Source: Candidatus Komeilibacteria bacterium
Lineage (GTDB): Bacteria > Patescibacteriota > Patescibacteriia > UBA1558
Assembly (NCBI GenBank): GCA_048538275.1
Contig: JBLYPW010000002.1
Coordinates: 2,111-66,110 of the forward strand
DNA length: 64,000 nucleotides
Direction of reading: 5' to 3'
The notes under the pieces were generated by a model that saw only the letters and a list, made by a program, of their open reading frames with translations, did not search any database and had not been told where the DNA came from. Made by a program: the position numbers and the translations under genes. Of the stretch, positions 10,803-44,935 are shown one piece after another. The number at the start of each line of letters is the position of its first letter. Within the stretch, counting starts at the first letter, position 1.

Positions 10803-11312
10803 ATGTCTGATGATATTCGTCGGCCGCTCCGCCAAACAATGGAGCGACCGGTTAGCAAAATGATAGACAAGCCATCACGCCCATGGCAGAGTTTGTTTTT
10901 CTCTAGCGTTTGGTTGGGTAGAATGCTTTTATTGGCGGTGATTATTATTTTATTAGCTTGGTGGTGGCAAGACCAAAGGAGTTCGGTGGATTATTTGGCG
11001 GAGTATAATATTCAGTCAGAATGGCAAGCGGTCTTTTTGGATAATGGTCAGACTTATTTTGGTCAAGTGAAGAATGTTAATAGCCAGACTTTGTGGTTGG
11101 ATAATGTTTATTATCTTCAGTCGCAAACGCCTTTACAATCAGGGCCTCAGCCCAAAGAAGGAGAAATAGCGATTGTCAAACTGGGCAAAGAAATTCATGG
11201 CCCGGAGGCGCAGATGATTATCCCGACCGTTGGTATTAGTTATGTAGAGAATTTGAAGGACACCTCTGCAATCGTGAGGGCGATCAAACAGGCAACCCCC
11301 GGCGTTGAATAA
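10803..11312 (+). CDS. Small membrane-anchored protein of 169 aa, paralog of 45856-46398. Its C-terminus (ATPGVE) is encoded by a REP 15-mer.
   Basis: One N-terminal TM segment. The W-Q-A-V-F-L-x-N-G-Q-x-Y-F-G ... N-x-Y-Y-L-Q ... VKLG-x-E-x-HGP block is shared with the protein at 45856. The last codons overlap caacccccggcgttg at 11293-11307. Confidence 0.6.
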   Translation: MSDDIRRPLRQTMERPVSKMIDKPSRPWQSLFFSSVWLGRMLLLAVIIILLAWWWQDQRSSVDYLAEYNIQSEWQAVFLDNGQTYFGQVKNVNSQTLWLDNVYYLQSQTPLQSGPQPKEGEIAIVKLGKEIHGPEAQMIIPTVGISYVENLKDTSAIVRAIKQATPGVE

Positions 11313-11404
11313 AAAAACATGGTAAAAATCAAGGAAAAATTGAAAAATAAAGCCAACCCCCGGCGTTGGCAACCCCCGGCGTTGAATAAAATGTAATTAT
11401 TTAG
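11296..11404 (+). repeat. Duplicated copy of the 85-bp 5' leader cassette of the gene at 14926. It forms a 25-aa decoy ORF at 11327-11404 (MVKIKEKLKNKANPRRWQPPALNKM) and contains two tandem REP 15-mers at 11354-11385.
   Basis: Near-identical to 14900-14985: ggcgttgaataaaaaaacatggtaaaaatcaaggaaaaattgaaaaataaagccaacccccggcgttggcaacccccggcgttg. Confidence 0.7.
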
Positions 11405-14400: not shown

Positions 14401-14876
14401 CTGATTTTAATATTGATGGTAATGCTAATGTGACATTTGCTGCATGGATATATCCTACCAGCTTAGGCGCTACCCGAGGTATAATCGGTATCACAACATC
14501 TAACCGTGACTATGCTTTACAAATTAACTCGTCCAATTATTTGATTTATCATTTTAACGACGGTAGTTTTTATAATTGCACAGATTCAACATCAACCGTC
14601 AGCCTTAATACTTGGACTCACGTTGCGGCTAGTATGGAAGATACAGGTTCTAGTAGTACTAGAGTTAGATTGTATAAAGATGGTATATTGGTAAATACAT
14701 GTGATCATGCGGCTGATCCCGTTGGTACTTCCAGTGTATGGGTTATAGGTGGGCTTACCACTACCGTAGAAGAGTTTATTGGCAGTATTGATGATGTGCA
14801 GTTTTATAATTATGCTTTGTCAGATGATCAAGTTAAGAAAGCAATGTTTGCCAACAGTGCCGTCTATCTTGAATAG
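11412..14876 (+). CDS. Giant paralog 1 (1,154 aa): N-terminal signal-anchor followed by about five LamG-like (Laminin_G_3 / concanavalin-A-like lectin) modules.
   Basis: TM helix YYISILFTAIIIVAGLVYLF. Module-terminal motifs recur: LDEVKIYNYQRNASQV, IDDLRIYDYAIEE, LDELKFYNYALSSDDI, MDEIKIFNYVRSQAQI, IDDVQFYNYALSDDQV. They are typical of the LamG/pentraxin-like superfamily. Confidence 0.8.
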   Translation: MKKSTTYYISILFTAIIIVAGLVYLFQAYNVWAYLNPGADPIHYWNMDEMDYNTCPSGGDVCDMTGVYNGTAYGSIGWVGEDECVAGGCMYFDGVDDYVNFGDIPSVEGDLSISFWIRPTDMTYRQNPLGKAYYDEFDFTLEIDDGLQYYHGETSSFYYGVTTDPEYYLSNNQWQHIVVTRDVSARTGVYYVNGAAIKTFNWDASRDPTAGGVNFQFGKTYIANEYKGYLDEVKIYNYQRNASQVAADYNAGIAGHTPKIGSGVALGSNNNADPGVPYAYWQMDDSAVPGIAYDSSGNGFTGIPANISWEPGKRGNAALFNSSSDKITLPYTWQVTDSTKPFGSKNSDMSISMWIYPTVDNATCSNHNICNIMFANAGTAIDDNFEMGWYQDTVNFYMELSGTDYEVFVSSNMIIRENAEWRYITLTKSSTAGVKVYVNGILQATYPTLTGTFNVNGVQGNDLMIGQTNNTGVYYSGYIDDLRIYDYAIEEKQILNDMYAAKGTHPILHYAFEENGNTAASDSTLSAFQGTINGSPNRSQDGVLGRGLYFDGSDDRIAISNWGYPASWSDYFSISTWINVPASETWTNGYKSAIMGRGDGAGSHGLIRQTTNNQVAMYVRGDNGEIYASGTITRDSWHHLVGIWDGTQVALYIDGVLESQTGTARTGSPAANTWYVNGPVTFGGNIGQYNEGGLDELKFYNYALSSDDIANDFNYGSAVVLGADKTSSSSWVDGGFGGDPLLAYWNFEEGSGSIAQDISSNGYLGTYVGSPQYSLGKIGWGLEFDGGDYINIADNLGDPTAITIELWFKKSNINAGSQYMMDARNGGTWWWLQDYVAGVCTDSNGNICFDARAEIPSSELSNNTWYHVAVTDDASAVKLYLDGRLIATGTGEDPGLGTNLRIGTRYTDANRFVGSMDEIKIFNYVRSQAQIAFDMNGGKPTAHWNFDENTGTSAYDRYGGYTGTLTGDGVTWVDGKFGYALNFAGSSDYINIEPLDTDFNIDGNANVTFAAWIYPTSLGATRGIIGITTSNRDYALQINSSNYLIYHFNDGSFYNCTDSTSTVSLNTWTHVAASMEDTGSSSTRVRLYKDGILVNTCDHAADPVGTSSVWVIGGLTTTVEEFIGSIDDVQFYNYALSDDQVKKAMFANSAVYLE

Positions 14877-14925
14877 CTACTAACAACCCCCGGCGTTGGC
14901 AACCCCCGGCGTTGAATAAAAAAAC

Positions 14926-17900
14926 ATGGTAAAAATCAAGGAAAAATTGAAAAATAAAGCCAACCCCCGGCGTTGGCAACCCCCGGCGTTGGCAACCCCC
15001 GGCGTTGTGGCAAAGGCCGTCATCGCCGCTTTAATAGTGGTTGGTTTTCTTGGTGGTATTACCTGGGCGGCTGGTGGCTGGGGATTTGGTAGTGGCAGCA
15101 GTAGCACGACGGATGTTTCTGTCGGCACCTCAGCCGACAAAGGCTTGATTGGTTATTGGCCATTGGATAGTGCTAGTGAGAAAGTGGGGAGTGAATTGGT
15201 TATGAATGAAGATATGGAGTTAGATAGTAATTGGTCAAGTTATAATTCTCCTACAACTAATGAACAAAGTAATGAACAAGTGTATACTGGAACATATAGT
15301 CGAAAATTTATTGCAGATGCTTTAAACGAAGGTATACGGAGTGAAAATTTTAGTGTTATTGCTGGAAAAAAATATAGAGTGACTGCCTGGATATATTCAG
15401 TGAATAAATCTTGGGCTACTCTACGTGTTAGGCATGGCGACGGCACTGGATTTGCATATAATTATGCTAATACTGTCACTAATGGAGAATGGACTTTAAT
15501 AAAAGCCGATTACACAGAGACTATAAGTGGCTCTAACGCATATATTCATTTTGATAGTGGAGGATATTCTAGTGGCACTTGGTATGTTGACAATGTTAGC
15601 ATTAAAGAAATTAAAACAGCTGACGCAACGCCATACTCTCATCACGGTACTGTTTATGGCGCGACGCAGAATGATGATGATATGACCTTTGATGGTACGG
15701 ATGATTATATTAATGCTGGTACTGCTGATATGAATACTGACGAACTTACAATTTCATTTTGGGTTTATTCTGAAGATGCTGGTGATCAGGATCATCATAT
15801 TATATCAAACGCAGACAATACTGGTTGGTATCAGCCCAATGGTTTTGATATTGGGGATGGCTGGACAGCTGGCTATTATTTTTACTATTCATATATAGGT
15901 AACGCCCATATACAGCAACACCCGTCACATATGATCGGCGTTTGGTCGCATATTACTTTTGTTTATGCTAAAGGAGATTATATGAAGGGTTATATAAATG
16001 GTGATTATTTTGCACAATCAGCTAGCGTGGGCACAGAAACTATTAATGCCGCTAATACTTTATATATCGGCAGAGCTATTCGGTCAGGCAAGTTTAAGGG
16101 AAAGCTCAAGGACGTCCGTATCTACAATCGTGCCTTATCTGACACAGAAGTGGCTAGCTTGTATAATGGTGGTAAAAGTGCCAGTAAAAATTTGGTGATT
16201 GGTAGTAAAAGTAAAGGTTTGGTCGGAGAGTGGAAGCTGGATCAGGCGAGTGAAAAGGTGGGCGATGAAATGCATTCCAATTTTGACATGGAGTCGGGTA
16301 TTACTTCGTGGACATTTGATTCCAAAACAAATGGTTCTAGAGATAGCTATACTGCTGACTTTAAGTTTGGTTTAAAATCAGTTAGAATTAAAAATTCTAC
16401 GGTAGGACCGATTGCTTTTTGGCAAGCTAAGTCCGCTTCGGTGGGTGAGTTGTATAAAGTTGTTGTTTGGGCTAAAAATATAGATTCTCCGACGATTCCG
16501 TATTTTAGTTCCGCCGGCGCTACCTTTGTTAGTGGCGATACTTCTTTTGTTGATATCAGTACGACCGAATGGCAAAAATATGAAGGGATTTTTAAGGCAA
16601 CAGATACAACTATTAATATTTACATCAGAACTGCTGCAAATGCGACCCAGGGTTATTTTTTGGTTGATAATTATTCTTTGAAACAAATATACACTAAAGA
16701 TGCAACACCTTATAGTAATAACGGCGCTATTTACGGCGCTACTTATACTACCGATCGCCAGGGTCAAGCTAATAAGGCGATGAGTTTTGATGGAGTGGAT
16801 GATTATATAAATGCGGGTAATATTTCTCAAACAAATTTTGGTACCGGTGATTTTAGTATCAGCGCTTGGATAAATACTACGGATAGTCAATTTTATATTT
16901 TAGGCAAGCAAACCTGGGGAGTAGCAGAAGGTTTTTTTCTAGGCACAAAAGCTGGATATGATGGTGGGGATGATAATTATTTTTGGTTTGATACTGGTTA
17001 TAGTTCTGCTAATGCTAAAATTTTAACCTCACTAATTAATACTGGACAATGGGTCCATGTAGTTGCGATCAGAAGTAATGGAGTTGGTTATATTTATGTT
17101 AATAATGCTTTGGAAGTTACGGATAGTAGTAATTCCCAGAATGTTGACTCAAATGCTAGTCTGACTATAGGACGCCGGACGGGTAGCGGGTATTATTTGG
17201 ATGGTGATCTAAGCGACGTCCGTATCTACGATCGTGCTTTGTCAGCGGAAGAAATAGCTTCTTTGTATAATTCTTACAATCCAATAATATCTACCGGTAG
17301 TCTGCAAAAGGGTTTGGTTTTGGACATGCCGCTGGATAGTAAGCGGGAAAAGGTGGGTGGTGAAACTATTACTAATGGTGATGCGGAAATAGGCGATGTC
17401 ACGGGTTGGTCTGTCCAAGGGGGCGCGAGTAGAAGTTCTGTTATATCGCAATTACATAGCGGTACATATTCTCTACAGGTTACAAATTCTAATACTTCTG
17501 GGGGCTTACCCTATAATTTCATTTATCAGCAAGTTAATGGATTAACAATTGGAGCTACTTATAGAACTGTGGCTTGGGTTAAGGGAGCTACTAGCTCTGA
17601 CACTGGCTACATTGGTGTGTCGGACGATATTGTACAGGGAGAAGCATCTTATTATGGTTCGGATGGCGGTCCTAATCATTCTGATTGGACAAAATTAAGC
17701 GTTACCTTTGTGCCGGAAGCTACTACAGTTTATGTTCAATTATATTCTAACTCAGGTGCTAATATATCGTATTGGGACGATATTAGTTTAAAAGAAATCC
17801 AAACAGCTGACACTACCACTTATTCAAATCATGGAGTTGTTTATGGCGCAACGCAGAATAGTGATAGCATGAGTTTTGATGGTAGCACTAACTATATTGT

Positions 17901-18378
17901 TACATCTAAGAATAATATTGAAAATACATTTACTTTTTCTGCTTGGATAAATGGTGATACTAGTTTTGATGGGCAAATATTGGGCAGGTTGAATACTACT
18001 TGGTCATCATCATCTGTTGGAGATTTTATTTATTACGCAGGTACTTCAGCATGGGGATTATACGGATTTTTAGGAAGTGGTGTGAATGGTGGAGCCAATT
18101 CTTATTTAATAAGCAATTCATTATCTCCTAATACTTGGTATCATTTAGTTGCAACCTATGATGGAACTACGATTAAATATTATAAGGATGGAGTAGATAT
18201 TAATGATGATAAGGCTATGCTATTCAGTGATGATGCATCGTCATTAAATATTTGGATAGGAGCAAGACAGTATAGTGGTAGTATGGCACATTTTGAAGGA
18301 GATATAGCAAATGTGAAAATCTACAATCGTGCTTTATCGGCAGATGAGGTACAATTGTTGTATAATAAGGGGAGGTAA
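14926..18378 (+). CDS. Giant paralog 2 (1,150 aa): leader containing REP, TM anchor, then alternating CBM4/9-like and LamG-like modules.
   Basis: N-terminus MVKIKEKLKNKANPRRWQPPALATPGVV is encoded by three tandem REP 15-mers at 14961-15007, followed by a TM helix. The repeated K-E-I-K/Q-TADxTPYS-x-HG-x-VYGATQN linker occurs 3 times. DVRIYNRALSDTEV-type LamG ends are present. Segments such as WATLRVRHGDGTGF...WYVDNVSIKEI resemble CBM_4_9. Confidence 0.8.
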   Translation: MVKIKEKLKNKANPRRWQPPALATPGVVAKAVIAALIVVGFLGGITWAAGGWGFGSGSSSTTDVSVGTSADKGLIGYWPLDSASEKVGSELVMNEDMELDSNWSSYNSPTTNEQSNEQVYTGTYSRKFIADALNEGIRSENFSVIAGKKYRVTAWIYSVNKSWATLRVRHGDGTGFAYNYANTVTNGEWTLIKADYTETISGSNAYIHFDSGGYSSGTWYVDNVSIKEIKTADATPYSHHGTVYGATQNDDDMTFDGTDDYINAGTADMNTDELTISFWVYSEDAGDQDHHIISNADNTGWYQPNGFDIGDGWTAGYYFYYSYIGNAHIQQHPSHMIGVWSHITFVYAKGDYMKGYINGDYFAQSASVGTETINAANTLYIGRAIRSGKFKGKLKDVRIYNRALSDTEVASLYNGGKSASKNLVIGSKSKGLVGEWKLDQASEKVGDEMHSNFDMESGITSWTFDSKTNGSRDSYTADFKFGLKSVRIKNSTVGPIAFWQAKSASVGELYKVVVWAKNIDSPTIPYFSSAGATFVSGDTSFVDISTTEWQKYEGIFKATDTTINIYIRTAANATQGYFLVDNYSLKQIYTKDATPYSNNGAIYGATYTTDRQGQANKAMSFDGVDDYINAGNISQTNFGTGDFSISAWINTTDSQFYILGKQTWGVAEGFFLGTKAGYDGGDDNYFWFDTGYSSANAKILTSLINTGQWVHVVAIRSNGVGYIYVNNALEVTDSSNSQNVDSNASLTIGRRTGSGYYLDGDLSDVRIYDRALSAEEIASLYNSYNPIISTGSLQKGLVLDMPLDSKREKVGGETITNGDAEIGDVTGWSVQGGASRSSVISQLHSGTYSLQVTNSNTSGGLPYNFIYQQVNGLTIGATYRTVAWVKGATSSDTGYIGVSDDIVQGEASYYGSDGGPNHSDWTKLSVTFVPEATTVYVQLYSNSGANISYWDDISLKEIQTADTTTYSNHGVVYGATQNSDSMSFDGSTNYIVTSKNNIENTFTFSAWINGDTSFDGQILGRLNTTWSSSSVGDFIYYAGTSAWGLYGFLGSGVNGGANSYLISNSLSPNTWYHLVATYDGTTIKYYKDGVDINDDKAMLFSDDASSLNIWIGARQYSGSMAHFEGDIANVKIYNRALSADEVQLLYNKGR

Positions 18379-21957: not shown

Positions 21958-24900
21958 ATTAAATAAAATCAACCCCCGGCGTTGGCAACCCCCGGCGTTG
22001 ATTATAATAACAGCGATTATTATTGTAATTGGCCTTATTTATATCTTTAATAAACCAGAACCAGCCACTGCTTGGTTCAATGACGGCTGGCATTATCGGC
22101 AGACAGTAGCTGTTACTAATGCTGGTACTGAACAAACAGACTTTCAGATTAAGATAACTTTAGATACAGCCGCATTGGTTACGGCAGGCAAAATGCAATC
22201 AGATTGTGATGATATAAGACTTACAGACATTAATGGTAATGTATTATCTCATTGGATAGAAGATACCACTTGCAACACCGCGGCAACAGAGATTTGGACA
22301 AAGCTAGCATCAATTCCCACAACAGCAATTAATTTATATTTATATTATGGTAATCCTAGTGTTAATAGTGTTGAGGTGGGACAGTGTGATATGTTTGTAT
22401 GTTGTGGCTCAGATGTAGGTGGATCTTATCATAACAATCCAGGTTATGGATTAACATATAATACAACCGAAGATTATACTTTACAATTCGTTACATTGGA
22501 TTCAGAAATAGCTCAGGATATTGATGTTTATGTTCACGATGGGCCGGCGCCTACAGATACAATTTTATATACAAAATCTATATCTTTATCTTCTGGATTA
22601 AATACAGATGTTAATATTGAGATACCATTAGGTATAGGCACTAATTATTTATTAAGACCAGATAATACTAGGGATAATTTAAAAAGAACGCCTGACGACT
22701 CAAATTTACCATACGTTTGTGAAGGAATTACCATTAATGGTGGTAATCAAGGGTATTCTACATATTATTATTATTTTTATAATTGGAAATTAAGAAAACA
22801 TACTACCACCGAGCCAGTTGTTGGTGATCCATCTTCTGAAGAAAAAGGCCCGGGACCAATTGCTTATTGGAAATTTGATGAGGGTTATGGAATAACCGCA
22901 CAAGATTCTACCACGGGTAATAATGACGGCACCATAACCGGTGCCACTTGGCAAGCAGAAGACATGTGCGTGAGTGGGAAGTGCTTGAGTTTCAACGGCA
23001 GTAGTTATTTTGTTAAGGTTTCCGATAATAGTATTTTAAAACCCACAGATGTTATCACCGTAGGGGCGTGGTTTAATAGTAATGACATTACTACGTCCGG
23101 TCAACGCATAGTTTCTAAAACCGAAGGCAGCGGGTATCAATTAAGTTTAAACGAAAATAGCGCCTGTCCTACCAATACATTGTGTTTTTTAGCCCATGTT
23201 GCTGGAGGATATAGATCAGCTAGTTACGCCTCTTCTAATATAGAAAGCAATAAATGGTATTATCTCGTAGGCACATTTGATGGCACCAATGGTTATCTTT
23301 ATTTGAATGGTGAACAGGTTGGTAGTTTTTCTCAGTCTGGAACAATAGCTACCAGTACAGCTCCCGTATGTTTAGGAGCAGAGGCAACATCAACCTCTTG
23401 TAGTACGGGTTATTTTAATGGTCGGATGGATGGTGTAGGAATTTATAATTACGCTCGCACCGCCGCTCAAATAAAAGCAGATTATCTAGCTGGACAATCA
23501 GGCGCACCATCTGGTGCCAGCGCGTCTTTGGGTAGTAGGCAACAAGATCAGAGTGAAGGTTTGGTAGGTTATTGGAAGATGGATGATGCGGGTGTAGATG
23601 CTGAAGGTGAAACCATCAGTGACAGTTCCGGTAACGGTAATAGCGGCACGCTTTATGGTGATAATGCTACCGGTGATAATGGTACTGGCATGGATTGCAC
23701 AGCTAGCGGTAAATATGGCACGGGTTGTAGTTTTGATGGAGTGGATGATTATGTTTCAATCATAGATAATGGTGATTTGGATTTAGAAACAGCATGGACT
23801 GTCGCGACTTGGGTAAAACGAGAAGGCACTTGCGATAGTGGCGGTTATTCTAAAATAGTTTCAAAATGGGAAAATTATTTTTTAGCTATAGATTGTAATT
23901 TAGGTGATAATGTTTTGTATGGCTGTGTGGGTGATGGCTCTGGTCATACTTGTAATAATTCAAGGGATACGACTTTACCTCTTAATGAATGGCATTTTTT
24001 GACTTTTACATACAGCGAAGCCTTAGGTAAAGCCGATCTTTATATGGATACTCAATTAATACATAGCGTTGATGCTACTAGTACTGCTAGTAGCAATTAT
24101 GATTTAAATTTTGGTACGCCACATTCTGGTGTTACCAATCAGTATTTTCAAGGCAAAATAGATAATGTAAAAATATACAATACCGCCCGTACAGCCGAGC
24201 AGATCATGCGCGATTATAAAACCGGACCACCGCCGGTGGCTTACTATGATTTTGAGGAAAAATCTACATCTATAGCATATGACAAATCAACCTATGGTTA
24301 TAACCTTACAGCCGTTGGACTGGACAGTACAAATATAGTTTTAGGAAAAATTGGCAGTGCCTATAAATATGGGACGTGGACTGAAAGACACACTGGTTCA
24401 AGTTTTAATATTTGTAATAACATAACAATGGAAGCGTGGGTTTATCCTTTATCCACTCCATCAAATATGTATACGATTGTGTTAAATAATGGGGCAAATG
24501 CTGCTTATTTGAGCTATGATCCGTCCAATGGCGTAAGTACATATTGGTACAATAAATCTTCTGTAGGTTATCATTCATCTGGATCGTCCACAGTACCTTT
24601 AAATACATGGTCGCATGTAGCAGCTGTTTGGGATAATACTGGGGCTAATCTTTATGTAAATGGGATATTGAAAAATTTTGTATCATCTACAGGAACTTCG
24701 TCGTGTACTGGTGATGGTTTGGTTGTGGGAGCTGAAAATGACGTTAGACAAATGGATGGTTATATTGACGAGGTGAAAATCTACAACTACGCTCGCACCC
24801 CAGAGCAAATTTTACAAGACATGTATGGGGATGAGGACGCGCATCCGATTGCATATTACAAATTTGATGAGGGGTATGGAACATCTCTCAAAGATTCTAT

Positions 24901-26864: not shown

Positions 26865-26912
26865 CAACCCCCGGCGTTGCCAACGCCGGGGGTTGACAAC
26901 ACCCGGTGTTGG
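26865..26912. repeat. REP family 1 hairpin (caacccccggcgttg CCAACGCCGGGGGTTG inverted pair) plus the palindrome acaacacccggtgttgg, between paralog 4 and RAYT-A.
   Basis: Perfect inverted repeat of the 15-mer. Second palindrome at 26896-26912. Confidence 0.85.
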
Positions 26913-26962
26913 CGGTAAATTATAGAAAACAGGGTCTATCTAACGATTAACCCTGTATTTTT

Positions 26963-27538
26963 ATGCCTAAAATTGAGCGAAATATTGAACCCGGCTCTAT
27001 TCATCATGTCTATAATCGGTCGGTAGAGAAAAGAACCATATTTTTTATTGACAGAGATTATCAATGGTTTTTAGAAAAAATAGCGTTTTATAAAGTTAAA
27101 TATAAGGTAAAAATCTTAGCTTTTGCGCTTTTGCCTAACCATTGGCATTTGTTAGTGCAGGAACAGGAAGTAGTCCAACCCCCGGCGTTGGCAACGCCGG
27201 GGGTTGTTAGAATGATTGGAGATTTATGCAATGCCTATGTCAAGCGCTTCAACATAGCTCATGATCGCTCTGGACCCTTATTCCAGGGCAGATTTAAGTC
27301 AAAAGTGGTTGAAGATGAGCATTATTTGCAGAATCTTATTAATTATATCAATCTCAATCCAGTAAAACATAAAATAGTAAAGAATATTAAAGACTGGGAT
27401 TATACGTCACATTGGCACTACTTGGAGAAAGGGAAATTTGCTTTGGTTGATAAGAGTGAGTTTATAGATTTTGCGGTTTATAAGGCTGGCGTGGTTGATT
27501 ATTTACGAAAATTTGAGAATATTGAGGAAGAATTTTAA
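26963..27538 (+). CDS. IS200-like HuH tyrosine transposase, REP-associated (RAYT-A, 191 aa). It carries an in-frame REP hairpin insertion.
   Basis: N-terminus MPKIERNIEPGSIHHVYNR. HuH motif LLPNHWHLLV. C-terminal Y motif HYLQNLINYINLNPVKHKIV. REP caacccccggcgttggcaacgccgggggttg at 27177-27207 is translated as QPPALATPGVV. REP hairpins flank the gene at 26865-26895 and 27542-27572. Confidence 0.8.
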   Translation: MPKIERNIEPGSIHHVYNRSVEKRTIFFIDRDYQWFLEKIAFYKVKYKVKILAFALLPNHWHLLVQEQEVVQPPALATPGVVRMIGDLCNAYVKRFNIAHDRSGPLFQGRFKSKVVEDEHYLQNLINYINLNPVKHKIVKNIKDWDYTSHWHYLEKGKFALVDKSEFIDFAVYKAGVVDYLRKFENIEEEF

Positions 27539-27541
27539 ATC

Positions 27542-27572
27542 CAACCCCCGGCGTTGCCAACGCCGGGGGTTG
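27542..27572. repeat. REP family 1 hairpin immediately 3' of RAYT-A.
   Basis: caacccccggcgttgccaacgccgggggttg, a perfect inverted pair. Confidence 0.85.
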
Positions 27573-27673
27573 GATTACACAAAATCGTATTTTTCTGTTA
27601 TAATTTAATCGTAAAATTACAAAAAAAGAGGGCCATGTTAAAAGGTTTTTTGACGTGGCTTTTTATAATATAG

Positions 27674-30600
27674 ATGTTGAATATAAAGGAAAAATTTAAA
27701 ATCAACCCCCGGCGTTGGCAACGCCGGGGGTTGGCAACACCCGGTGTTGGAATCCGCATCGCTTCTATTCTTTTTATTGCTATCATTATAGTAGCTGGTT
27801 TAATTTATATATTCAATAAACCTCAATCAGTAGAAGCAACTTGGTGGAACCCCACCTGGAGTTATAGACAAAGCATTGCTGTCACCAATGGCTCAGGCGG
27901 TACTTTAACAGATTTTCAAGTTGAGATATTGCAGAATGTTGATTTGAGTAGCCTTAATACAGCCGGCAAGCTGCAAGCAGATTTGGCTGATTTACGTTTT
28001 ACCGATATAAATCATAGAGTTCTGCCTTATTGGATAGAAGATAATACTATCTCTTCTGTAAATGCTTGGATTAAAATACCATCTATTCCTACAACCGGTA
28101 CTACTATTTATATGTATTATGGGAATTCATCGGCTAGTGATGCGCAGGATGGATTTAATACATTTTTGGCTTTTGATGATTTTGAAGACGGGGATATGAG
28201 TACATGGGAGCATATAGATGCTTGGGGAGATAATCTTGGCACATGGACAGAGTCTGGTGGCGTTATGCGTGCTGATTGTAATACTTTATGGTGCCATGAA
28301 ACTGCCTGGCAACATGTAAATTTTCAAACCGATAATGTTGCTTTAGCTGCCAAACATCGTTGTTTGGGTAATAATTCTGACGGTGAAGGTGGGATAGGTA
28401 TTTCTTTTACAGGCGGATGGGAAAATTATAGCACACAACAAACAATGCTTATCCGTAATGATAATCAAGATATCTGGGCAAGTGGAGGCACCCCTAGTAC
28501 CACCGTGTCGTTTACTAATACATGTAATACATGGTATAAAACCGAAATTAGAGATATTGCTGGCTCTAATGCAACTTTATGGGTGGATGATGTACAAAAA
28601 CATGCCACCACTAATAGTGTTACTACTGTAAACGGTAGGCCAGCTTTATCCCAGTATAAGGGTGATATTGAATACGACTGGGTATATTATAGAAAATTAG
28701 CATCCACTCAGCCTACAGCCGGCAGTCCAGCCACTGAAGAAAACGCCCCCGGCCCAGTGGGTTATTGGAATTTTAATGAGGGATTTGGCACAACAGCTTA
28801 TGATAGTACAGGTTATGGTAATGATGGGACAATTTCAGGGGCAACCTGGGTGCAGAATGGTAAAAGTGGTAGAGCTTTGAGTTTTAACGGGAGTAGTGAT
28901 TATATTATAACTAATAATGATATTGGAATATCAGGAACAGATGAAAGGACAGTTAGTTTATGGGTAAAAACTACATCAGCAAATGTTACTACAAATTCTA
29001 TTATTTTTGGAATGGGCACCGCTGCTGCTAATAATTTATTTGCCATGAGAACTGATTCTACTACTGATACTTGGAGATTTACAGATGCATCAGTTGCAAG
29101 AGAAACAAATGTCTCAACAACTGGTCAGTGGCAACACATAGTAACTATACTTGATTCTAGTCAACAATTAAGCGTTTATATTGATGGAATTATAACAGAT
29201 GTAAATAATATTGATTTGTCATCACAAGATACTACTAATGCTCCTTTCTATATTGGTTCAAGTGTTAATAATACTTTGTATTTTGATGGTCTCATAGACG
29301 AAGTACGCATCTACGACCGTGCCTTGTCAGCCAATGAAGTGAAACAGCTTTATAATCAAAATGCCGGCAGCTTTAATGTCGGGCAGTCTGGTATATCCAC
29401 TTCTTGCGCTGATCAATTGGCAAAAAATCCCGGCTCTAAGTCTGGTGTTTATACTATTGATCCTGGCTATGGAGTTGATCCTTTTGATGTTTATTGTGAT
29501 ATGGAGACTGACGGTGGGGGGTGGACTATGGTGGCATCAAATCATTCTAGTAGTACTTTAATACCCTCTGGCACTGGCAGAAATTCTGCTGAGTATGAGT
29601 TGGATAGGAATGGCAGTTATACTGCGTTAGGGACACCTTCTCCAAATACGGATTATATTATTGGCGCAGCTATTAATATATTGGAATGGGATGAAGCAAG
29701 GATTACTATGTTTGGGTTTGATTCAACTAGTTCATCGTATGTTTATCCCACAAATTTGGGAGATTATGCAGATGTTAAATGGGATGTTCCTGGTTCTGAT
29801 GCCGGACGGTTGGATCAGGCCGTTGCGGCAGCTAGTGTGTCCATATTTAGGAATAATAATTTTGCAAGTTTTCATCCAAGTGTTGCTTATTTCTATGTAG
29901 ATGGAGTACATCATGACTATATGCCAGATAGTGTATATGGCGCTAATGCAAATCAGGCAACAGTTGGAGGTGTTGGTAGAAGTGGCACGACTGTTACCGG
30001 TACATACTTTGGGCATGGTGTAACTGAGGGAAGTTTTGAGGGTTCATATGGCCCAGGAAACACGGCGAGTAAAAATGCCTCTGGGTATGTTACGTGGGTT
30101 AGAAGTAATACTGTGACTAGTTCATCTGGCGTTGCTCTAGACCTCCCCTTTGAAGCCGTATCCGGCTCTACGACTTATGATATTTCTGGTAATGAAAATA
30201 ATGGCACCATTACCGGCGCTACTCACAAAACTTCAGCCAATTGTAAGGTGGGGCGGTGTTTTGAGTTTGATGGGAGTGGTGATACTATAACCATAAGTGA
30301 TAGCACCAGTATTAATGCTATAGGGCAAGCTATGACGCTATCTGCCTGGGTTAAACCATCAGCATTTACAACTAGTTATAGGTCGGGGATTATCACAAGA
30401 CGTAATGGCAATGCAGGTATTGGATTTTATTTGGCCGGTGATTTAGATCCTGCTACATCAGGAACAATGGAGGCTATGATTGGGGGCGGGGCAAATGTTG
30501 CAGCTAATACAGCCTTACCACTAGATGAGTGGTCTTATACAACTATGGTCGCAAGCGGCGACAGTATTTCTTTTTATTTGAATGGAGTAGATGATGGTGG

Positions 30601-33412
30601 CGGCGTTTTGACCGGTTGGACCTGGGATGATGGTGTGGCTGTTCAGATTGGTGGAGTTACTGGTACAGCTGGTTATACAATATTTGGATTTATTGATGAG
30701 CCTAAAATATTCAACCGCGCTCTTACGCAAAGAGAAATTATGATGGAAATGAACGCTGGTAAACATCAGCCAGTATTAGATTTAGGTTTTGATGAAGGTG
30801 GAGGCAGTACAGCTTATGATAAGTCAGTTTTAACTAATAATGGTAGTATTTCTGGAGCTGATTATAAAACTCCGGAAAATTGTGTAAGTGGAAGTTGTTT
30901 GGATTTTAATGGTAGTAGTGATCATGTACGGATTACAGATAGCAGTTCTGGTGATGATTTGGATTTTGGTAGTGACAGCTTTACCGTTTCAGCTTGGGCT
31001 AATATTGATGAAGGAACAACTGCGCGTGGCACAGTACTATCCAAATCTAATGATGTGACTATGCCGGATACAGTTGGCTATTGGTTGATGGGACCCTATA
31101 CTGGTTGGTCTAGCACCTTTGCTTTTGCTACCAACGATGGTTCAGGTAGCACATTTTATGTTAGTGATGGTGATACTAGCTTGATAGATGGTAAGTGGCA
31201 TCACGTTGGTTTGATTTTAAATAGAGATACGGGCATTATGACGCTTTATGAAGATGGTCAGTCAGTTGACACGGCTGATATTAGTTCTTTGGGTAGTATT
31301 TCTAATAGTTATAATTTTGGTGTAGGTAGTTATCAAGGTGGTGGCAGTAATGTGATCAATGGCAAAATAGATGAAGTTAAAATGTATAATTATGCTTTAA
31401 CAGAAGCAGAATTAAAACAAGAATACACTCAATCCAAAGGTCAGTTTGGGCGGACTAGTGCGGTGGGAGAAAAAACCACGCCCGGAGCTTCTTGCGCGGA
31501 TATTTTAGCGAAAAATTCTCAGGTCGCAGATGGATATTATTGGATAGATCCTAATGGCGGATCACAATCAGACGCTTTTAAGGTTTATTGTGATATGACC
31601 ACTAATGGCGGGGGCTGGACATTGATTGAGTCATTTTCTTTAGCTAATAAAGCAAGTTTTACATCATTTTTGGGCAACGTGTCTATAAATGAGGATGATC
31701 CGACTCAAATAGATAATTATAGATTATCTAAGACTAGAATGGATAATTTAAATGGCGTTTCAACACAATGGCGCTCAACCTGTCAAATGAATCAGGATCC
31801 TACTAGAGATTATGCAATATCTAATAAATCAGATACAGATATAATGACATTTGCAATTACTGATAGTTGCCGGGTTATGGTTGATGTAAATGTCCGTGGT
31901 TATAATTGTCAAAATTGTCAGGCTAAGTGGTGGGGTTATGCCGCAGGTAGTAAGCATACCCACTTAGATTCAAGCATTAATAATGCTGTGTGTGGTGTAG
32001 GATCGCTTGACTCAGACGCTGGCTCTGTAAGTTCAGAAGATAATTGGGGTTATTATGCTTATACAAATCCTGAATTTCAATGTACTGCTTCTAGCGATTC
32101 AACAACAAATTGGTGGATGGGAGGTCTTGGCAGTAGTATTTCTACCGGCCCTGTTCTTGACATGACTTTTGATAAATATGTTGGTGGAGTTTATTTGGAT
32201 GAGAGTGGCAACGGACATAATACTACTACTATTAGCAGTGATCCTGAATGGAAAACAACAGTCAATTGTAAGTCGGGCAGATGTGTAGATTTTGATGATA
32301 GTTCGGATTGGGTTAGGATTGCAGCAAATTCAGTATTTGATTTTACAGGCGACTATACTTTAGAGGCGTGGATTAAGCCAAATTCTGTCGTGGGTTATCG
32401 TCACGGCATTATGGGTAAATATTCTAGCGATGGTTGGGGTTTGAATTTGCATGAAGATAAGGTGAATTTTGGTAGTCATACTTGTAGTAACTTTAGTGGT
32501 TCAACTAGTTTGCAAGCAGGTGCTTGGTATCATGTGGTGGGTATTTATAAAGAAACAGGTGATGATGAACTTTATGTGAATAGTCGTTTAGATGGAACTG
32601 GTAATTTAACCGACGGGAATTGTAATGCTGATACTAGCGATGTTGTTATTGGTACTTATAGAACTTCAACAACAGAAGAGTTTAATGGGATCATTGATCA
32701 GGTAAAAATATACGATAGAGCTTTAACACAGAGAGAAATATCTATGAACTATAATGGCGGTCAACCGATTGGTTGGTGGCGACTGGATGAGGGGGCGGAT
32801 AATTTATGTTCTGACGGCAAAGACGCTTGTGATAGTTCCGGTGAAGGGAATAATGGGACAGAAAGTGGAAATATTACTTGGATAACAGATACTTCTTTGT
32901 GTAAACAGGGTGGTTGTGCTAGTTTTGACGGGAGCGGGGATTATATACAAACTAGTTTATCCCAAACTTTTAATTCAACGACTATATCTTTCTGGATGGA
33001 TTGGGATAATTATGGAACAGATACTATCGATTTTATAGGAGAAAGTGAGGATAGTAGTAAAGTAATGGTTCACACCGGCGGTGGATCAGGGATAAATGGT
33101 ATAAGGTTTCATTTTGCTTCAAGCGCTTCAGGGTTTGATACAATAGGTATAATCGGCTCTGGTTGGAATCATTATTTAGTCACTTATGATAATGGGAGTA
33201 TAAAAATTTATAAAAACGGAGTTTTGGAAAATTCCGCAACGGTGACAGATGAGTCTGCTACTATAAGTTCTTGGGATATTGGCAGAAGAAGTAATAGTGA
33301 TGGTTATCATTTTAATGGTTCTTTAGATGATATCCGCATCTACAACTACGCCCTCACCGATAAACAGGTTAAAGAAGTATATAATCAAGGGTTGATTCAT
33401 TTTACCCCGTAA
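27674..33412 (+). CDS. Giant paralog 5 (1,912 aa): REP-encoded leader, TM anchor, DUF2341-like domain, LamG-like modules and two fibrinogen-C-terminal-like domains.
   Basis: Leader MLNIKEKFKINPRRWQRRGLATPGVG is encoded by the REP inverted pair plus palindrome at 27705-27752. TM helix IASILFIAIIIVAGLIYIF. DUF2341-like block TWWNPTWSYRQSIAVTN...GKLQADLADLRFTD...IYMYYGNSSA. Fibrinogen-like motifs CADQLAKNPGSKSGVYTIDPGYGVDPFDVYCDMETDGGGWTMVA at ~29395-29560 and CADILAKNSQVADGYYWIDPNGG..FKVYCDMTTNGGGWTLIE at ~31480-31640. LamG ends DEVRIYDRALSANEV, DEVKMYNYALTEAEL, DDIRIYNYALTDKQV. Confidence 0.8.
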   Translation: MLNIKEKFKINPRRWQRRGLATPGVGIRIASILFIAIIIVAGLIYIFNKPQSVEATWWNPTWSYRQSIAVTNGSGGTLTDFQVEILQNVDLSSLNTAGKLQADLADLRFTDINHRVLPYWIEDNTISSVNAWIKIPSIPTTGTTIYMYYGNSSASDAQDGFNTFLAFDDFEDGDMSTWEHIDAWGDNLGTWTESGGVMRADCNTLWCHETAWQHVNFQTDNVALAAKHRCLGNNSDGEGGIGISFTGGWENYSTQQTMLIRNDNQDIWASGGTPSTTVSFTNTCNTWYKTEIRDIAGSNATLWVDDVQKHATTNSVTTVNGRPALSQYKGDIEYDWVYYRKLASTQPTAGSPATEENAPGPVGYWNFNEGFGTTAYDSTGYGNDGTISGATWVQNGKSGRALSFNGSSDYIITNNDIGISGTDERTVSLWVKTTSANVTTNSIIFGMGTAAANNLFAMRTDSTTDTWRFTDASVARETNVSTTGQWQHIVTILDSSQQLSVYIDGIITDVNNIDLSSQDTTNAPFYIGSSVNNTLYFDGLIDEVRIYDRALSANEVKQLYNQNAGSFNVGQSGISTSCADQLAKNPGSKSGVYTIDPGYGVDPFDVYCDMETDGGGWTMVASNHSSSTLIPSGTGRNSAEYELDRNGSYTALGTPSPNTDYIIGAAINILEWDEARITMFGFDSTSSSYVYPTNLGDYADVKWDVPGSDAGRLDQAVAAASVSIFRNNNFASFHPSVAYFYVDGVHHDYMPDSVYGANANQATVGGVGRSGTTVTGTYFGHGVTEGSFEGSYGPGNTASKNASGYVTWVRSNTVTSSSGVALDLPFEAVSGSTTYDISGNENNGTITGATHKTSANCKVGRCFEFDGSGDTITISDSTSINAIGQAMTLSAWVKPSAFTTSYRSGIITRRNGNAGIGFYLAGDLDPATSGTMEAMIGGGANVAANTALPLDEWSYTTMVASGDSISFYLNGVDDGGGVLTGWTWDDGVAVQIGGVTGTAGYTIFGFIDEPKIFNRALTQREIMMEMNAGKHQPVLDLGFDEGGGSTAYDKSVLTNNGSISGADYKTPENCVSGSCLDFNGSSDHVRITDSSSGDDLDFGSDSFTVSAWANIDEGTTARGTVLSKSNDVTMPDTVGYWLMGPYTGWSSTFAFATNDGSGSTFYVSDGDTSLIDGKWHHVGLILNRDTGIMTLYEDGQSVDTADISSLGSISNSYNFGVGSYQGGGSNVINGKIDEVKMYNYALTEAELKQEYTQSKGQFGRTSAVGEKTTPGASCADILAKNSQVADGYYWIDPNGGSQSDAFKVYCDMTTNGGGWTLIESFSLANKASFTSFLGNVSINEDDPTQIDNYRLSKTRMDNLNGVSTQWRSTCQMNQDPTRDYAISNKSDTDIMTFAITDSCRVMVDVNVRGYNCQNCQAKWWGYAAGSKHTHLDSSINNAVCGVGSLDSDAGSVSSEDNWGYYAYTNPEFQCTASSDSTTNWWMGGLGSSISTGPVLDMTFDKYVGGVYLDESGNGHNTTTISSDPEWKTTVNCKSGRCVDFDDSSDWVRIAANSVFDFTGDYTLEAWIKPNSVVGYRHGIMGKYSSDGWGLNLHEDKVNFGSHTCSNFSGSTSLQAGAWYHVVGIYKETGDDELYVNSRLDGTGNLTDGNCNADTSDVVIGTYRTSTTEEFNGIIDQVKIYDRALTQREISMNYNGGQPIGWWRLDEGADNLCSDGKDACDSSGEGNNGTESGNITWITDTSLCKQGGCASFDGSGDYIQTSLSQTFNSTTISFWMDWDNYGTDTIDFIGESEDSSKVMVHTGGGSGINGIRFHFASSASGFDTIGIIGSGWNHYLVTYDNGSIKIYKNGVLENSATVTDESATISSWDIGRRSNSDGYHFNGSLDDIRIYNYALTDKQVKEVYNQGLIHFTP

Positions 33413-33806: not shown

Positions 33807-36800
33807 ATGCTAAAATTAGCCAAAAAATTTAAAATCAACCCCCAGCGTTGGCAACCCCCGGCGTTGGGAATATTAATAACAGCGATTATTATTGTATTTG
33901 CCGTGGTTTATTTTCTTCGAACACCCGGTGTTGTACAGGCAGAATGGTGGAATGAGGGCTGGCATTATAGAGATTCATATCCTATTACATACTCATCATC
34001 TGGTTCGGAATTAACAGAATATCAAGTCTTGGTGGAGGATCTGGATACTGCTACTCTAATAGCGGCTGGCAAGATGCAGTCTGATTGCGCGGATATTAGG
34101 TTTACAGATGTTAATAGTACAGTATTGAATTATTCTATTGTCGGCGCTACTTGTAATACCAGCAATACTAAAATATGGGTGAAGATGGAAAGCATCCCGG
34201 CAGGAGGAACAACTTTGTATTTATATTATGGCAATCCAAGTGCTAGTTTTTATCAAAGTGAAGAGAACACATTTAGTTATAGTACAGAAAAAACAGTGGG
34301 ATATGTTTTAAATGACGGGAGTACAGCTTTTGATTTAATTAGTTTGGCAGATGGTAATTCTATAACACACAATAGTACGACTTTAACTTTGAATAAAGGT
34401 GAAAGTAGCGCCCTTACTACCTCTACTTATTTACCAGTAACTGCCAAAAAATTATTTAATATGTCCACTGAGGAGTATGATACTATTGTACCGATTGGTT
34501 GGGCTGGCACGGAGTTTGTTTACCAGAATCGCAACGGGACTTATGAAACAGATTTTGTTATGGTCAGTCCGTGGGGTACGGCTACCGTACAAATATATAT
34601 TGATGGTGTGCAATGTGGTGCTGATAGAACAGTAACTAGCTCTGGTTTAAAGGTGACAGACTGTGGCGGCGCTGCTTCTGATGTGTTTAGGATAGTAAGT
34701 GATATACCTATCATTGTAAATAGGTCTAGCAGTGTAAATGATCCCCACCCTATGCATCCGGCTGATTTAGGACCTTGGTATGGTTGGGATTCAAGCGGCG
34801 ATTATATTGCCGCTGGCCCTAGTGGAGCCAGTTATCAGTGGATAGATAGTGGCATGAGCTCTGTTTCCTCAAGTAGTTTAGGTGCAAATGCGGGGACTAC
34901 TTTAGAAGCTGGTGGTGGCAGTTATTATTCTGGTGATACTATTAAGGTTTGGTCAACAGATTATGTTATGGGCGCGTCTACAGCTGGTGATGCTGACGGA
35001 GGGGATGCTACTACTTATTTGCCAAACTGGGAATTTGGCACCATAACCGGGTCGCCTTATGCAACGGATTTTGTGGCAGTACTATCTGATCAGGCAGTCA
35101 CTTGTACAACTTATAATAATAGCGGTGCCACCGTAAATACACAGCAATTATCTAGTACCAATACACAGGTTTATGAACTGGGTGGAACAAACTTTGGTAT
35201 AGGAAGTACTAGTGAATATATTAGTGGTGCTTGGTATGTAGAATGTGATGGGCCAGCTATGTTTGTATCACAAAATGTTGATGATGAACAAAATATGTGG
35301 TCTTGGCCTATGATGCGGCAGTTTTCTTATCCTACACCAGCGGTTGGTTCGGCTAGTGGTGAGGAAAAAGGAGAAGCACCAATATTGTATTGGAAGTTTG
35401 ATGAAGGTGTAGATAATTCTTGTTCTGGTGGCGGCGATGTGTGTGATTCCACAACCACCGGCGATCACAGGAACTTAGTGGGAGAACCAGATTGGCAGAG
35501 TGAAGACATGTGCGTGTCTGGTAAATGTTTATACTTTGACGGTACTAATGATTATATAGATTTAGGTTTTGGCAGCGGTCGTAATTTAGCTACCGATCCA
35601 TTATCAATAAGTATGTGGGTTAGACCAACTAGTTCTAGTGAAGATAATATGTACATAGCAACAGTGAATGGTACCAATCAGAGATTTTATTTTGCTATAC
35701 AAAATGGTTTATGGGATATGGGAATTCAAAATTCAACTTGGAGTCAAGGGGGTGCTGTTACTAGTGCAGACCTTAACGAATGGACGCATATAGCTATTGT
35801 CGCTAATGGTTCAGCAGTTAGGTTATATGTTAATGGTAATTATAGTTTTCAGAAAACATATACTTCGTATGCATTAGCTGGTAATATTGCCATTGCCAGC
35901 CAAGGCCCTGCAGGTGGTTATAAATGGCGAGGCTCCATAGATGATGTTAAAATTTATAATTATGCTCGTACAGACGATCAGATTAAAGCCGACTACTTAG
36001 CCGGCTTATCTGGCTCTTCGTCTGGTGTTGGCGCGTCTTTGGGCAGTAGGCAACAAGATCAGAGTGAAGGGCTGGTTGGTTATTGGCAGATGGATGATGC
36101 GGGTGTAGATGCTGAAGGTGAAACCATCAGTGATAGTTCCGGTAACGGCAACAGCGGCACGCTTTATGGTGATAATGCTACCGGTGATAATGGTACTGGT
36201 ATGGATTGTACCGTTACCGGTAAATATGGTACGGGTTGTAGTTTTGACGGGGTGGATGATTATGTTCTGAGTAGTTCCAATATCCCCGCTATGTCAAATT
36301 TTACGATATCAGTATGGCTACAGTGGGATGATTATGGCACTTCAAATACTCAATTTGTCACTGGAGGTGCTCAGGAGCAGTTTGAAATTCAAACCGGTGG
36401 AGGCAGCGGAACAAACGGTTTACGTTTTATACCCAATACTCACGACGCATCTACGTTAGATGTTGCTAATGCAATTCCAGATGCAAACTGGCATCATTAT
36501 GCAGTTGTATATACCAACAATGATCAAGTACTTGCATATAGAGACGGAGACGAAATTGGAAATAAGAGTCACTCGGTAAGTAGTAGTACTACAGCAAGTC
36601 AATTCAATATTGGAAGAAGAAGCAATAATAGTTATTTTTTTGATGGCAAAATAGATAATGTAAAAATATACAATACCGCCCGTACAGCCGAGCAGATAAT
36701 GAGGGATTATAAAACTGGACCATCGCCGGTGGCTTATTATGATTTTGAAGAACAATCCACTAGCATAGCCTATGACAGATCAGGCACTGGTGTTAATTTA

Positions 36801-44798: not shown

Positions 44799-44820
44799 TT
44801 ATTTAATAAGTAGGTGATGA

Positions 44821-44935
44821 ATCCTGTAAAGTAGCGAAGCTACTAACGGGATGAACCCTGTAAAGCAGTGAAGCTACTAACGGGGTGAACCCTGTAAAGT
44901 AGTGAAGCTACTAACAGGGTGAACCACGGCGCGGT
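44821..44935. repeat. Three tandem copies of a ~36-bp unit from palindrome family 2 (ccctgtaaagtagtgaagctactaacggggtgaa), immediately 3' of the minus-strand RAYT-B.
   Basis: Visible direct repeats. Each carries the inner hairpin gtagYgaagctac. Confidence 0.8.

Follow-up and report, generated by a model that had tools for sequence, protein, structure and literature searches.

The gene RAYT-A, located in a 64-kb stretch of one Candidatus Komeilibacteria genome (hereafter the window), encodes a Y1 transposase of the HUH (histidine-hydrophobic-histidine) fold related to the tyrosine transposases associated with repetitive extragenic palindromic (REP) sequences, i.e. to the REP-associated tyrosine transposases (RAYTs). 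Besides the REPs found on both of its sides, this gene harbours a further copy inside the part that encodes its own catalytic domain, where the repeat is translated in frame just after the HUH motif. An initial annotation of the window regarded this copy as a one-off interruption of the gene by its cognate REP, a description that has to be abandoned, since all of the intact members of the clade (15/15) carry their own repeat at this very site. The presence of the internal copy, its frame, its position in a loop, its conservation in the clade, its co-variation with the flanking copies, the compensatory changes that it has undergone and the purifying selection acting on the gene were all directly observed. 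We consider it probable that the internal copy is an old in-frame REP that was inherited vertically and kept in step with the repeats of each genome by templated copying, and that it may serve as a cis site.

RAYT-A is an uninterrupted open reading frame (ORF) that aligns with its homologs over its full length; no frameshift had been missed. It matches the Pfam family Y1_Tnp (PF01797, E 2.5e-6) and the NCBIfam model REP_Tyr_transpos (NF047646, REP-associated tyrosine transposase; 71.2 bits, E 8.2e-20), a score that is below the curated equivalog cut-off of 80 bits and makes it, by the NCBI threshold, a divergent relative and not an equivalog. The best sequence match in the PDB, and the sole solved structure reached by sequence, is the TnpA_REP of Escherichia coli (4ER8, E 1e-12), which is also the top Foldseek match (4er8_A, E 5.7e-9, template modelling score 0.72) of the AlphaFold2 (AF2) model of RAYT-A (predicted local distance difference test, pLDDT, 85.9); ISDra2 and IS608, which share the Y1 fold, are matched as well. 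The residues H60, H62, Y128, N132 and H136, including the ligands of the Y-x-x-x-N-P-x-x-H motif, are invariant across the RAYT-A relatives aligned. They correspond to H59, H61, the catalytic Tyr, N119 and H123 of the E. coli enzyme, which are those described by Messing et al. (PMC3479197). An identical protein (P0001) is on record from a metagenome-assembled genome of Candidatus Komeilibacteria, on a single 200-kb contig; with one gene in the window and P0001 on one contig of the protein collection, RAYT-A appears to be single copy. Its synteny is conserved: a giant gene with a Laminin_G_3 domain precedes the RAYT gene both in the window and in the related locus L004 (66% protein identity), and the genes located downstream of the RAYT gene are common to three other loci (L012, L022 and L030).

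The building block of the repeat is a 16-nucleotide (nt) unit, CAACCCCCGGCGTTGG, of which the window holds 24 copies (0.01 expected from shuffles), and a 23-nt core occurs 10 times (0.00 expected). A chance origin of the copies is therefore rejected, shuffles being expected to yield none. Around RAYT-A, the units form inverted (head-to-head) doublets and thereby long hairpins. The perfect 31-nt palindrome CAACCCCCGGCGTTG-N-CAACGCCGGGGGTTG is found four times in the window (26865-26895, 27176-27206, 27542-27572 and 27703-27733), with folding energies as single-stranded DNA (ssDNA) of -19 to -24 kcal/mol (z -5 to -9). The first of these palindromes lies 68 nt before the start codon of RAYT-A, the second is the internal copy and the third overlaps the stop codon, which bears out the description of the gene as flanked on both sides by perfect inverted-pair hairpins. 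Pairing into hairpins is a property of the copies around RAYT-A; elsewhere in the window, the units are single or form direct tandems of two or three, all on the + strand (Table 1). The 24 units fall in 10 clusters spread from 11.3 to 39.6 kb. All the clusters away from RAYT-A are located at the starts of paralogous genes encoding giant proteins and none lies in the 24 kb of housekeeping genes; the related loci show at most one further cluster (0-1) in the 10-20 kb fetched.

The term "classical" is not suited to such a REP unit, which consists of 15-16-nt mini-hairpins that lack GTAG and are also found in frame in other genes. Indeed, no conserved GTAG tag was detected on the 16-nt units of the window, the bases found 5' of them being variable (aatC, aaaT, aagC, ctaa, cagg). 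The GTAG that precedes the internal copy (27170-27173) was considered as a recognition tag and rejected, as the other copies in the window are devoid of it.

The internal copy is read as QPPALATPGVV and, as first described, these residues (Q72-V82) stand between H60/H62 and Y128; only the coordinates had to be shifted by one base (27176-27206 and not 27177-27207). It folds as ssDNA with -19.1 kcal/mol (z -6.8) and is the most stable 45-nt RNA window of RAYT-A (-28.1 vs a median of -5.2). In the AF2 model, the HUH strand (60-67) is followed by a loop (68-79, pLDDT ~67) and by a helix (80-99), and the repeat encodes the loop and the first turn of this helix, which is equivalent to helix alphaC of the E. 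coli TnpA_REP. A profile alignment to 4ER8 places the insert at the E. coli segment TLPEGDDD, just before alphaC. In the E. coli enzyme, alphaC occupies the minor groove of the REP hairpin and contacts specific bases through R78 and K82 (PMC3479197); the same helix is termed the conserved DNA-binding helix alpha3 by Corneloup et al. (PMC8266576). The peptide encoded by the REP is thus predicted, from the model, to adjoin the REP-binding surface of RAYT-A. The extra length of the loop, previously given as 10 aa, depends on the reference, being 7 aa relative to the nearest relatives in the representative library (P0173 and P0062) and ~11 aa relative to canonical RAYT loops. An intrinsic terminator within RAYT-A is rejected, no T-run following the internal hairpin, and an Rfam scan gave only sub-threshold microRNA-like hairpin noise and no known RNA family.

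The conservation of this arrangement was examined on the DNA of close relatives, which was obtained by exact-protein look-ups and by one scan each of the genome and metagenome collections, and which provided, with the window, 15 sequence-distinct loci (Table 1). The close relatives (44-68% identity) all carry extra residues at the post-HUH site and the peptide differs in each of them. In the 15 loci (15/15), it is one or two units of the GC-rich mini-palindrome flanking the gene at the same locus that encode these residues, and the site lies within ~12 nt after the codons for H-x-[LF]-[LIVT]-x-[KQT]-E. Across the clade, the units are 15-16 nt long and belong to ~11 types. Two loci have an incomplete set of flanking copies, L016 having none upstream and L012 none downstream. 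More distant Y1/RAYT homologs pass from the HUH strand to the helix through a short connection (e.g. HLLLQVGKVSISK), and in the outgroups L018 (Cloacimonadota) and L019 (Ferruginibacter), the gene is flanked by its own repeats and carries none inside. A test for in-phase palindromes on the broader set of RAYT-A profile matches gave no enrichment (ratio 1.0; the test misses out-of-phase palindromes), which suggests that, within the RAYT-A family, the internal repeat is confined to a narrow clade. In a neighbour-joining tree, the 15 insert-bearing genes and one further gene (L031) form one clade, sister to a UGA-recoded pair (L017 and L032). The lineage of this pair reads UGA as sense, its genes containing several in-frame TGA codons and being intact when translated with table 25.

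The internal copy is not only present at the same place but tracks the repeat family of its own locus. The longest word shared by the loop and its own flanks has a median length of 14 nt (range 11-33), vs a median of 8 nt (95th percentile 11) for the loop and the flanks of other genomes, and high values away from the diagonal are almost restricted to loci with the same or a near-same repeat type. The words that other segments of the gene share with the flanks of their own locus are AT-rich and 10-14 nt long, whereas the post-HUH word is GC-rich and 11-33 nt long. Furthermore, seven lineages harbour a 33-nt module (C + 15 + N + 15 + G, read P-T-x-x-V...) in identical register and with different sequences, its context being GAR, then C-unit-N-unit-G, then TAT or similar. 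Changes within this module are compensatory: 14 double-change cells were found in 7 of the 16 pairs and 85.7% of the cells were paired, and none of 500 shuffles reached the observed double-change count, percentage paired or covariation score. The internal copy is under a palindrome constraint that acts at the DNA level. Parallel substitutions are seen between L013 and L006 (83% identical proteins): the same C:G to T:A pair change distinguishes their two internal units and their flanking copies alike, and a single copy of the old type survives 6 kb away in L013. No variation of the loop was found among strains within the 90% identity clusters. Independent point mutation cannot give the observed co-variation; copying between repeats can.

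The gene that carries this repeat shows the signs of a maintained function. The dN/dS ratio is 0.10-0.21 in the eight measurable pairs of insert-bearing genes (68-85% identity; dS is saturated between the window and L004), and 15 lineages, with identities as low as 44%, have a RAYT ORF of full length. Of the two outcomes initially proposed, tolerance or inactivation, tolerance is the one retained, because of these dN/dS values, of the catalytic residues kept and of the location of the segment in a low-confidence loop; the internal repeat does not seem to inactivate RAYT-A, whose enzyme is predicted to be functional. It is very improbable that the insertion killed the enzyme and that the ORF is a decaying pseudogene that is still open. 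The NCBIfam score of 71.2 bits for a cut-off of 80 and the frameshift of the clade member L031 could be invoked in its favour, but the dN/dS values, the retention of all the catalytic residues, the full-length ORFs of 15 lineages and the confident AF2 model speak against it, and we reject it on the first two of these grounds. A chimeric join at a repeat during metagenome assembly has a negligible probability. Repeats are the classic points of breaks and joins in assemblies, but the protein aligns collinearly with its homologs before and after the repeat, and the same architecture is found in independent assemblies (P0008 on 21 contigs; L003, L015, L027, L028 and L029 from different projects), which leads us to reject this explanation as well.

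We propose that a REP at the post-HUH loop would be a heritable feature of the whole clade of Patescibacteria RAYTs and not a fresh insertion. As the REP of each genome drifted to a new palindrome, the internal copy would have been rewritten in step with the outside copies, probably by templated copying, that is by gene conversion or by a RAYT-catalysed replacement between REPs, while selection would have kept the frame open and the enzyme functional. Templated copying is inferred to be the cause of the co-variation. The internal site could be more than tolerated and act as a putative cis-acting site, through which the enzyme would find a substrate in its own gene or transcript; such a site could set a ceiling on the expression or activity of the enzyme, or ensure that the gene always stays linked to a master copy of the REP.

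Several observations weigh against this scenario. The units start at different nucleotides and in different frames in the window, L004, L010 and L020, which constitute the window's own subclade. In P0173 and P0062, the loop is 7 aa shorter and contains a single TPGVV/MPGIV word, which implies that the lineage of the window gained a unit and that units are gained and lost. Empty sites exist: L031, a member of the clade, has a long loop with the KEP retained, no repeat and one frameshift, and L032, the sister of L017, possesses flanking repeats only. L017 itself carries its palindrome TTCGAGTCCGGACTCGAA three times (10166-10183, 10249-10266 and 10481-10495), two copies being inside the gene, one at the post-HUH site without any change of loop length and one in a second loop, and the third immediately following the stop codon. 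Folding is weak for direct doublets and for single units (-9 to -12 kcal/mol), so that a strong hairpin is not universal and any function that needs a big stem is weakened; a large mRNA hairpin as the conserved function is likewise weakened, 5 of the 15 genes being only weakly structured at the site. In addition, the tree is a simple neighbour-joining one with no support values, and the repeat counts cover only the 64 kb of one genome. Uninterrupted alleles, the search for which had been suggested, thus occur as short loops in distant RAYTs and as the empty sites of L031 and L032, and none is found among the 15 intact clade members. Among the best 150 cluster representatives, the loop is hypervariable in length, the spacing from the HUH motif to the SY residues being usually of 19-21 residues; ~25 or more of these representatives have expanded loops, several of which hold doubled words of GC-rich codons at the peptide level (e.g. 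STPGV...NPRG). The internal repeat is old but not frozen.

The main rival of this scenario is that the post-HUH loop is the sole harmless in-frame place of the gene and that repeats have inserted there repeatedly, independently and neutrally, near a RAYT acting in cis. We regard it as unlikely, even though much of the variation is in agreement with it: neither the start nucleotide nor the frame is constant in the window's subclade, the number of units goes from 1 to 2 (up to 4 as judged from the peptide), a further loop of L017 houses a second internal copy, the length of the loop is hypervariable among the best 150 representatives, and genes unrelated to RAYTs also contain units in frame (prmC in L003, tmk at its 3' end, giant-protein genes at their N-termini). 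Intragenic REPs tolerated in loops are also known from the literature (PMC3733652). Nevertheless, recurrent insertion would not be expected to leave a copy in 15 of 15 intact clade members, the only empty one being frameshifted, nor the exact 33-nt register common to seven lineages whose sequences differ. No target-site duplications were seen, and in two relatives of a second RAYT family described below (L034 and L036), no copy other than the internal palindrome occurs within the fetched flanks.

This last observation is also consistent with an opposite direction of copying, in which the loop segment would be the ancestral or master copy and the extragenic REPs would have spun off from the gene. 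Neither flanking copy is more universal than the internal one, L016 and L012 each lacking one of the flanking copies, and the post-HUH palindrome of L017 encodes FESGLE without any change of length relative to LEKGFQ in its sister L032, the E and the G being common to both. We hold this alternative to be quite improbable for the clade, as more distant RAYTs have a short loop and no palindrome and as the clade shows no conservation of the encoded peptide; each genome has a different one and the DNA tracks the local repeat, so that the proposal that QPPALATPGVV is ancestral protein sequence later copied by REPs fails for the clade and might apply to L017. The present data give no direction of copying, and the idea overlaps with the master-copy variant of the scenario of an inherited REP rewritten in place.

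The copying of REPs and REPINs (REP doublets forming hairpins) and the long-term matching of a RAYT to its repeat are standing questions in the field, and we know of no REP transposition that has been reconstituted so far. A REP locked in the frame of its enzyme is a natural marker: its position is fixed by protein alignment, hence a change of its sequence must result from in-place rewriting. About eleven times, the internal copy has changed together with those outside the gene, which would be direct comparative evidence that REPs are homogenised by templated copying. A simple experimental handle is also at hand, since the palindrome can be recoded synonymously or the loop deleted.

The window contains a second Y1_Tnp gene, RAYT-B, whose product is so divergent that it can barely be aligned with RAYT-A. 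It carries an in-frame insert of ~60 aa right after the HUH motif, i.e. in the same loop as in RAYT-A (45187-45317). This insert includes a 46-nt GTAG-type palindrome that starts with GTAG, contains GTAGAGACGCGAT-TA-ATCGCGTCTCTAC and has perfect 21-nt arms (45274-45294 and 45297-45317) separated by TA, as well as five tandem 18-nt units (45187-45276) encoding the repeated peptide TKMAVG/AKMAVG. The RAYT-B family comprises 1,962 matches, many of them named RayT by JGI, found in Moranbacteria, Marinimicrobia, Melainabacteria and others (members of the RRDAINRVST type), and its post-HUH segment is hypervariable in length. The words found in its loops (RRDAINRVST, RDVACNVST, VETPRRGVST, VGARHAVPL) correspond to translated GTAG-type palindromes. 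At the DNA level, perfect palindromes of 30-40 nt are present at the post-HUH site in L033 (Moranbacteria), L034 (Marinimicrobia) and L036, so that, with the window, four genomes of this family read as DNA have a palindrome in the loop; L033 has a flanking copy of its palindrome, and L034 and L036 have no other copy in the fetched flanks (up to 10 kb on each side). Furthermore, at least 61 of 118 proteins of the family have a peptide compatible with an in-phase palindrome within the 43 residues that follow the HUH motif, a 19-fold enrichment over the rest of the protein.

These data raise the possibility, which we advance only tentatively, that RAYTs as a rule carry their own recognition hairpin before the hairpin-binding helix and that this hairpin would be the functional heart of the system, as a cis loading site, an origin-like master copy or a self-targeting brake. 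As an origin-like master copy, it would seed and homogenise the REP population of the genome; as a brake, it would limit the level of the enzyme. If so, the RAYT gene and its repeat would constitute one physically linked replicator, and the presence of a palindrome at the same structural position in two barely alignable RAYT families would be explained. If the pattern of the RAYT-B family holds at the DNA level, it would be an overlooked general feature of domesticated transposases, and many Pro/Gly/Arg-rich loops of annotated proteins from the candidate phyla radiation would be translated repeats.

RAYT-A displays several of the traits that define a RAYT, namely the Y1 HUH fold, the single Tyr, the N/H ligands, the flanking REPs and the conserved synteny. 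Like the REP/REPIN-RAYT systems (E. coli TnpA_REP, Pseudomonas RAYTs), it has the same fold with a single Tyr, apparently one copy and a conserved synteny, and genome-specific palindromic repeats that flank the gene and co-evolve with it, as reported in PMC8266576; flanking REPs and RAYT-REP co-evolution are established (PMC3116915, PMC8266576). Unlike in these systems, the units are 15-16 nt long, lack GTAG, form arrays of 1-3 units often within coding sequence, and one copy lies inside the RAYT catalytic domain; in particular, the 5' GTAG next to the hairpin that characterizes the group 2 RAYTs (E. coli type) is not a feature of the RAYT-A repeats. Intragenic in-frame REPs (GTAG/CGTC) and Rickettsia palindromic elements (RPEs) are described as translated and tolerated in loops or termini of functional proteins by Di Nocera et al. 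2013 (PMC3733652). The same source mentions that, in one instance, recB carries different REPs at nearly the same position in two Xanthomonas species, and that some REPs overlap the ends of RAYT genes (PMC3733652). The copy of RAYT-A resembles these elements, being wholly included in the ORF with the frame kept, in a place where distant homologs are ~11 aa shorter. It differs from them in that the host gene encodes the putative mobilising enzyme of the repeat itself, and in that the site is conserved in a clade while its sequence co-varies with the local repeat family (~11 types). In the RAYT/REP literature, as far as our partial coverage extends, no REP inside a RAYT catalytic core, no clade-wide conservation of one and no RAYTs of candidate phyla were found.

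In common with the elements of the IS200/IS605 family, RAYT-A has the Y1 fold, a hairpin at each end of the gene and a stem-loop in the leader that precedes the start codon. However, these elements are multicopy whereas RAYT-A appears to be single, with synteny conserved at 66% protein identity, and its end hairpins belong to a repeat family that appears to be dispersed; a hairpin in the catalytic core is not an IS200/IS605 feature. The nearest functional analogy that we know of is that of HUH replication initiators with a nick site inside their own gene, as is the case for the origins located in gene A of phiX174 and in repC of pT181. These sites are replication origins of autonomous replicons and their nicking has been demonstrated. 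The resemblance lies in a HUH/Tyr nuclease whose hairpin is embedded in its own coding sequence, an arrangement that, in phiX174 and pT181, favours action in cis and links the enzyme to its site; for RAYT-A, nicking, replication and cis preference would be putative.

The units are also read in frame outside the RAYT gene. Most of the dispersed ones lie within the first 30-130 nt of genes encoding giant surface-protein paralogs (Laminin_G_3/DUF2341), in which they encode an Arg-rich stretch (INPRRWQPPAL...) just before a membrane helix. In the ORF 27674-33412, which encodes one of these Laminin_G_3/DUF2341 giant proteins, the triplet 27703-27749 is thus read as NPRRWQRRGLATPGVG before the membrane helix. 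A giant-protein gene of L004 harbours three units of L004's own repeat at +29 (4890-4935), as do the genes of the window at 27703, 33836 and 39617 with theirs, and the frame is kept at this site in L004 and in the window though the number of units differs. The presence of its own repeat at +29 in L004 suggests that old repeat sites are rewritten in place in genes other than that of the RAYT as well. Were the number of 16-nt units to change at the starts of these giant-protein genes, this would shift the frame and could lead to phase variation. In L003, three tandem units (2291-2337; 48 nt, in opposite orientation) are in frame within PrmC/HemK, just before the S-adenosylmethionine-binding motif ILDIGCGCG, and the doublet located downstream of the RAYT gene overlaps the 3' end of tmk.

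Table 1. Features of the window and repeat units found inside RAYT genes of the clade
Feature	Position	Strand	Remarks
RAYT-A gene	26963-27538	+	191 aa, ATG to TAA, uninterrupted; Y1 HUH transposase; HUH H60/H62 at 27140-27148, Tyr128 at 27344-27346
Intragenic REP inverted doublet	27176-27206	+	In frame as residues 72-82 (QPPALATPGVV), between H60/H62 and Y128
Upstream REP cluster	26865-26911	+	Inverted doublet 26865-26895, then variant unit CAACACCCGGTGTTG at 26897-26911; ssDNA fold -23.6 kcal/mol, z -5.1
Promoter-like site	26893-26921	+	TTGACA made by the REP end, 17 nt, TAAATT; consensus match, putative function
Leader stem-loop	26929-26962	+	ACAGGGT-(14 nt)-ACCCTGT then ATTTTT; ends at the ATG of RAYT-A
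Downstream REP inverted doublet	27538-27576	+	Core 27542-27572, within a perfect palindrome of 19+1+19 nt; ssDNA fold -24.1 kcal/mol, z -9.0
REP triplet	27703-27749	+	Inverted doublet and variant unit, 29 nt into ORF 27674-33412
Dispersed units	11293-11384	+	Single unit 11293-11307 and direct doublet 11354-11384, bracketing a short leader-peptide-like ORF
Dispersed units	14884-15007	+	Direct doublet 14884-14914; direct triplet 14961-15007, in frame at +35 of ORF 14926-18378
Direct doublet	21970-22000	+	5' coding end of the giant-protein gene ending at 26860; likely start ATG 21941
Direct doublet	33836-33866	+	In frame at +29 of ORF 33807-39272
Direct doublet	39617-39647	+	In frame at +29 of ORF 39588-44798 (Laminin_G_3 giant protein)
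RAYT-B gene	44942-45619	-	Second Y1_Tnp gene, very divergent, barely alignable to RAYT-A
Internal unit, window			CAACCCCCGGCGTTG
Internal unit, L004			CGACACCCGGCATC
Internal unit, L010			GGTTCCGGGATCC
Internal unit, L020			CAACTCCCGGAGTTG
Internal unit, L011			CAACCTCGCAGGTTG (one unit)
Internal unit, L006			CGACCCCCGGGGTCG
Internal unit, L026			CAACCCCGGGGGTTG
Internal unit, L008			CACCCTTAGGGTG
Internal unit, L013 and L023			CGACCCTCAGGGTCG
Internal unit, L016			CACGTCAGAGGTG
Internal unit, L003			CAACCTCGAAGGTTG
Internal unit, L014			CGACCTCGCAGGTG
Internal unit, L012 and L022			TCACCCGCCGGGTGA

The region that precedes RAYT-A has features of its own. The TTGACA located directly 3' of the upstream REP recurs in most homologous loci, and the homologs have a leader stem-loop with the same layout and other stems (e.g. 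AATAGGTC/GACCTATT). A stem-loop followed by a T-run is found at the same place in L006, L008, L003, L012 and L036 and before RAYT-B (~45622-45655), where it likewise ends at the ATG, and its stems vary between lineages in a compensatory fashion. From its sequence, this leader stem-loop looks like a terminator, a transcription attenuator or a translational operator.

Two tandem arrays unrelated to the 16-nt unit are also present, one just downstream of RAYT-B (34 nt x 3.2, 44816-44925), in which each 34-nt unit has a small GTAGC...CTAC stem, and another at 46604-46758 (31 nt x 5). A RAYT gene of the RAYT-B type in L036, a Komeilibacteria-like genome (10001-10576), and one of the RAYT-A type in L004 (2089-2670) share a syntenic slot consisting of a giant Laminin_G_3 gene, the RAYT gene, UPF0102 and ComM.

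In two of the giant-protein genes of the window, a variant unit, ACACCCGGTGTTG (read TPGVV), directly follows the codons of the membrane helix (~33920-33935 and ~39700-39715), so that the helix-coding segment is bracketed by repeat units. Finally, the short ORF 11319-11396 (MVKIKEKLKNKANPRRWQPPALNKM*) joins the conserved N-terminal leader to two repeat units, and its end lies shortly before the true start of the gene 11412-14876. It may be a remnant or an upstream ORF, and its leader module is found fused in frame at 14926.

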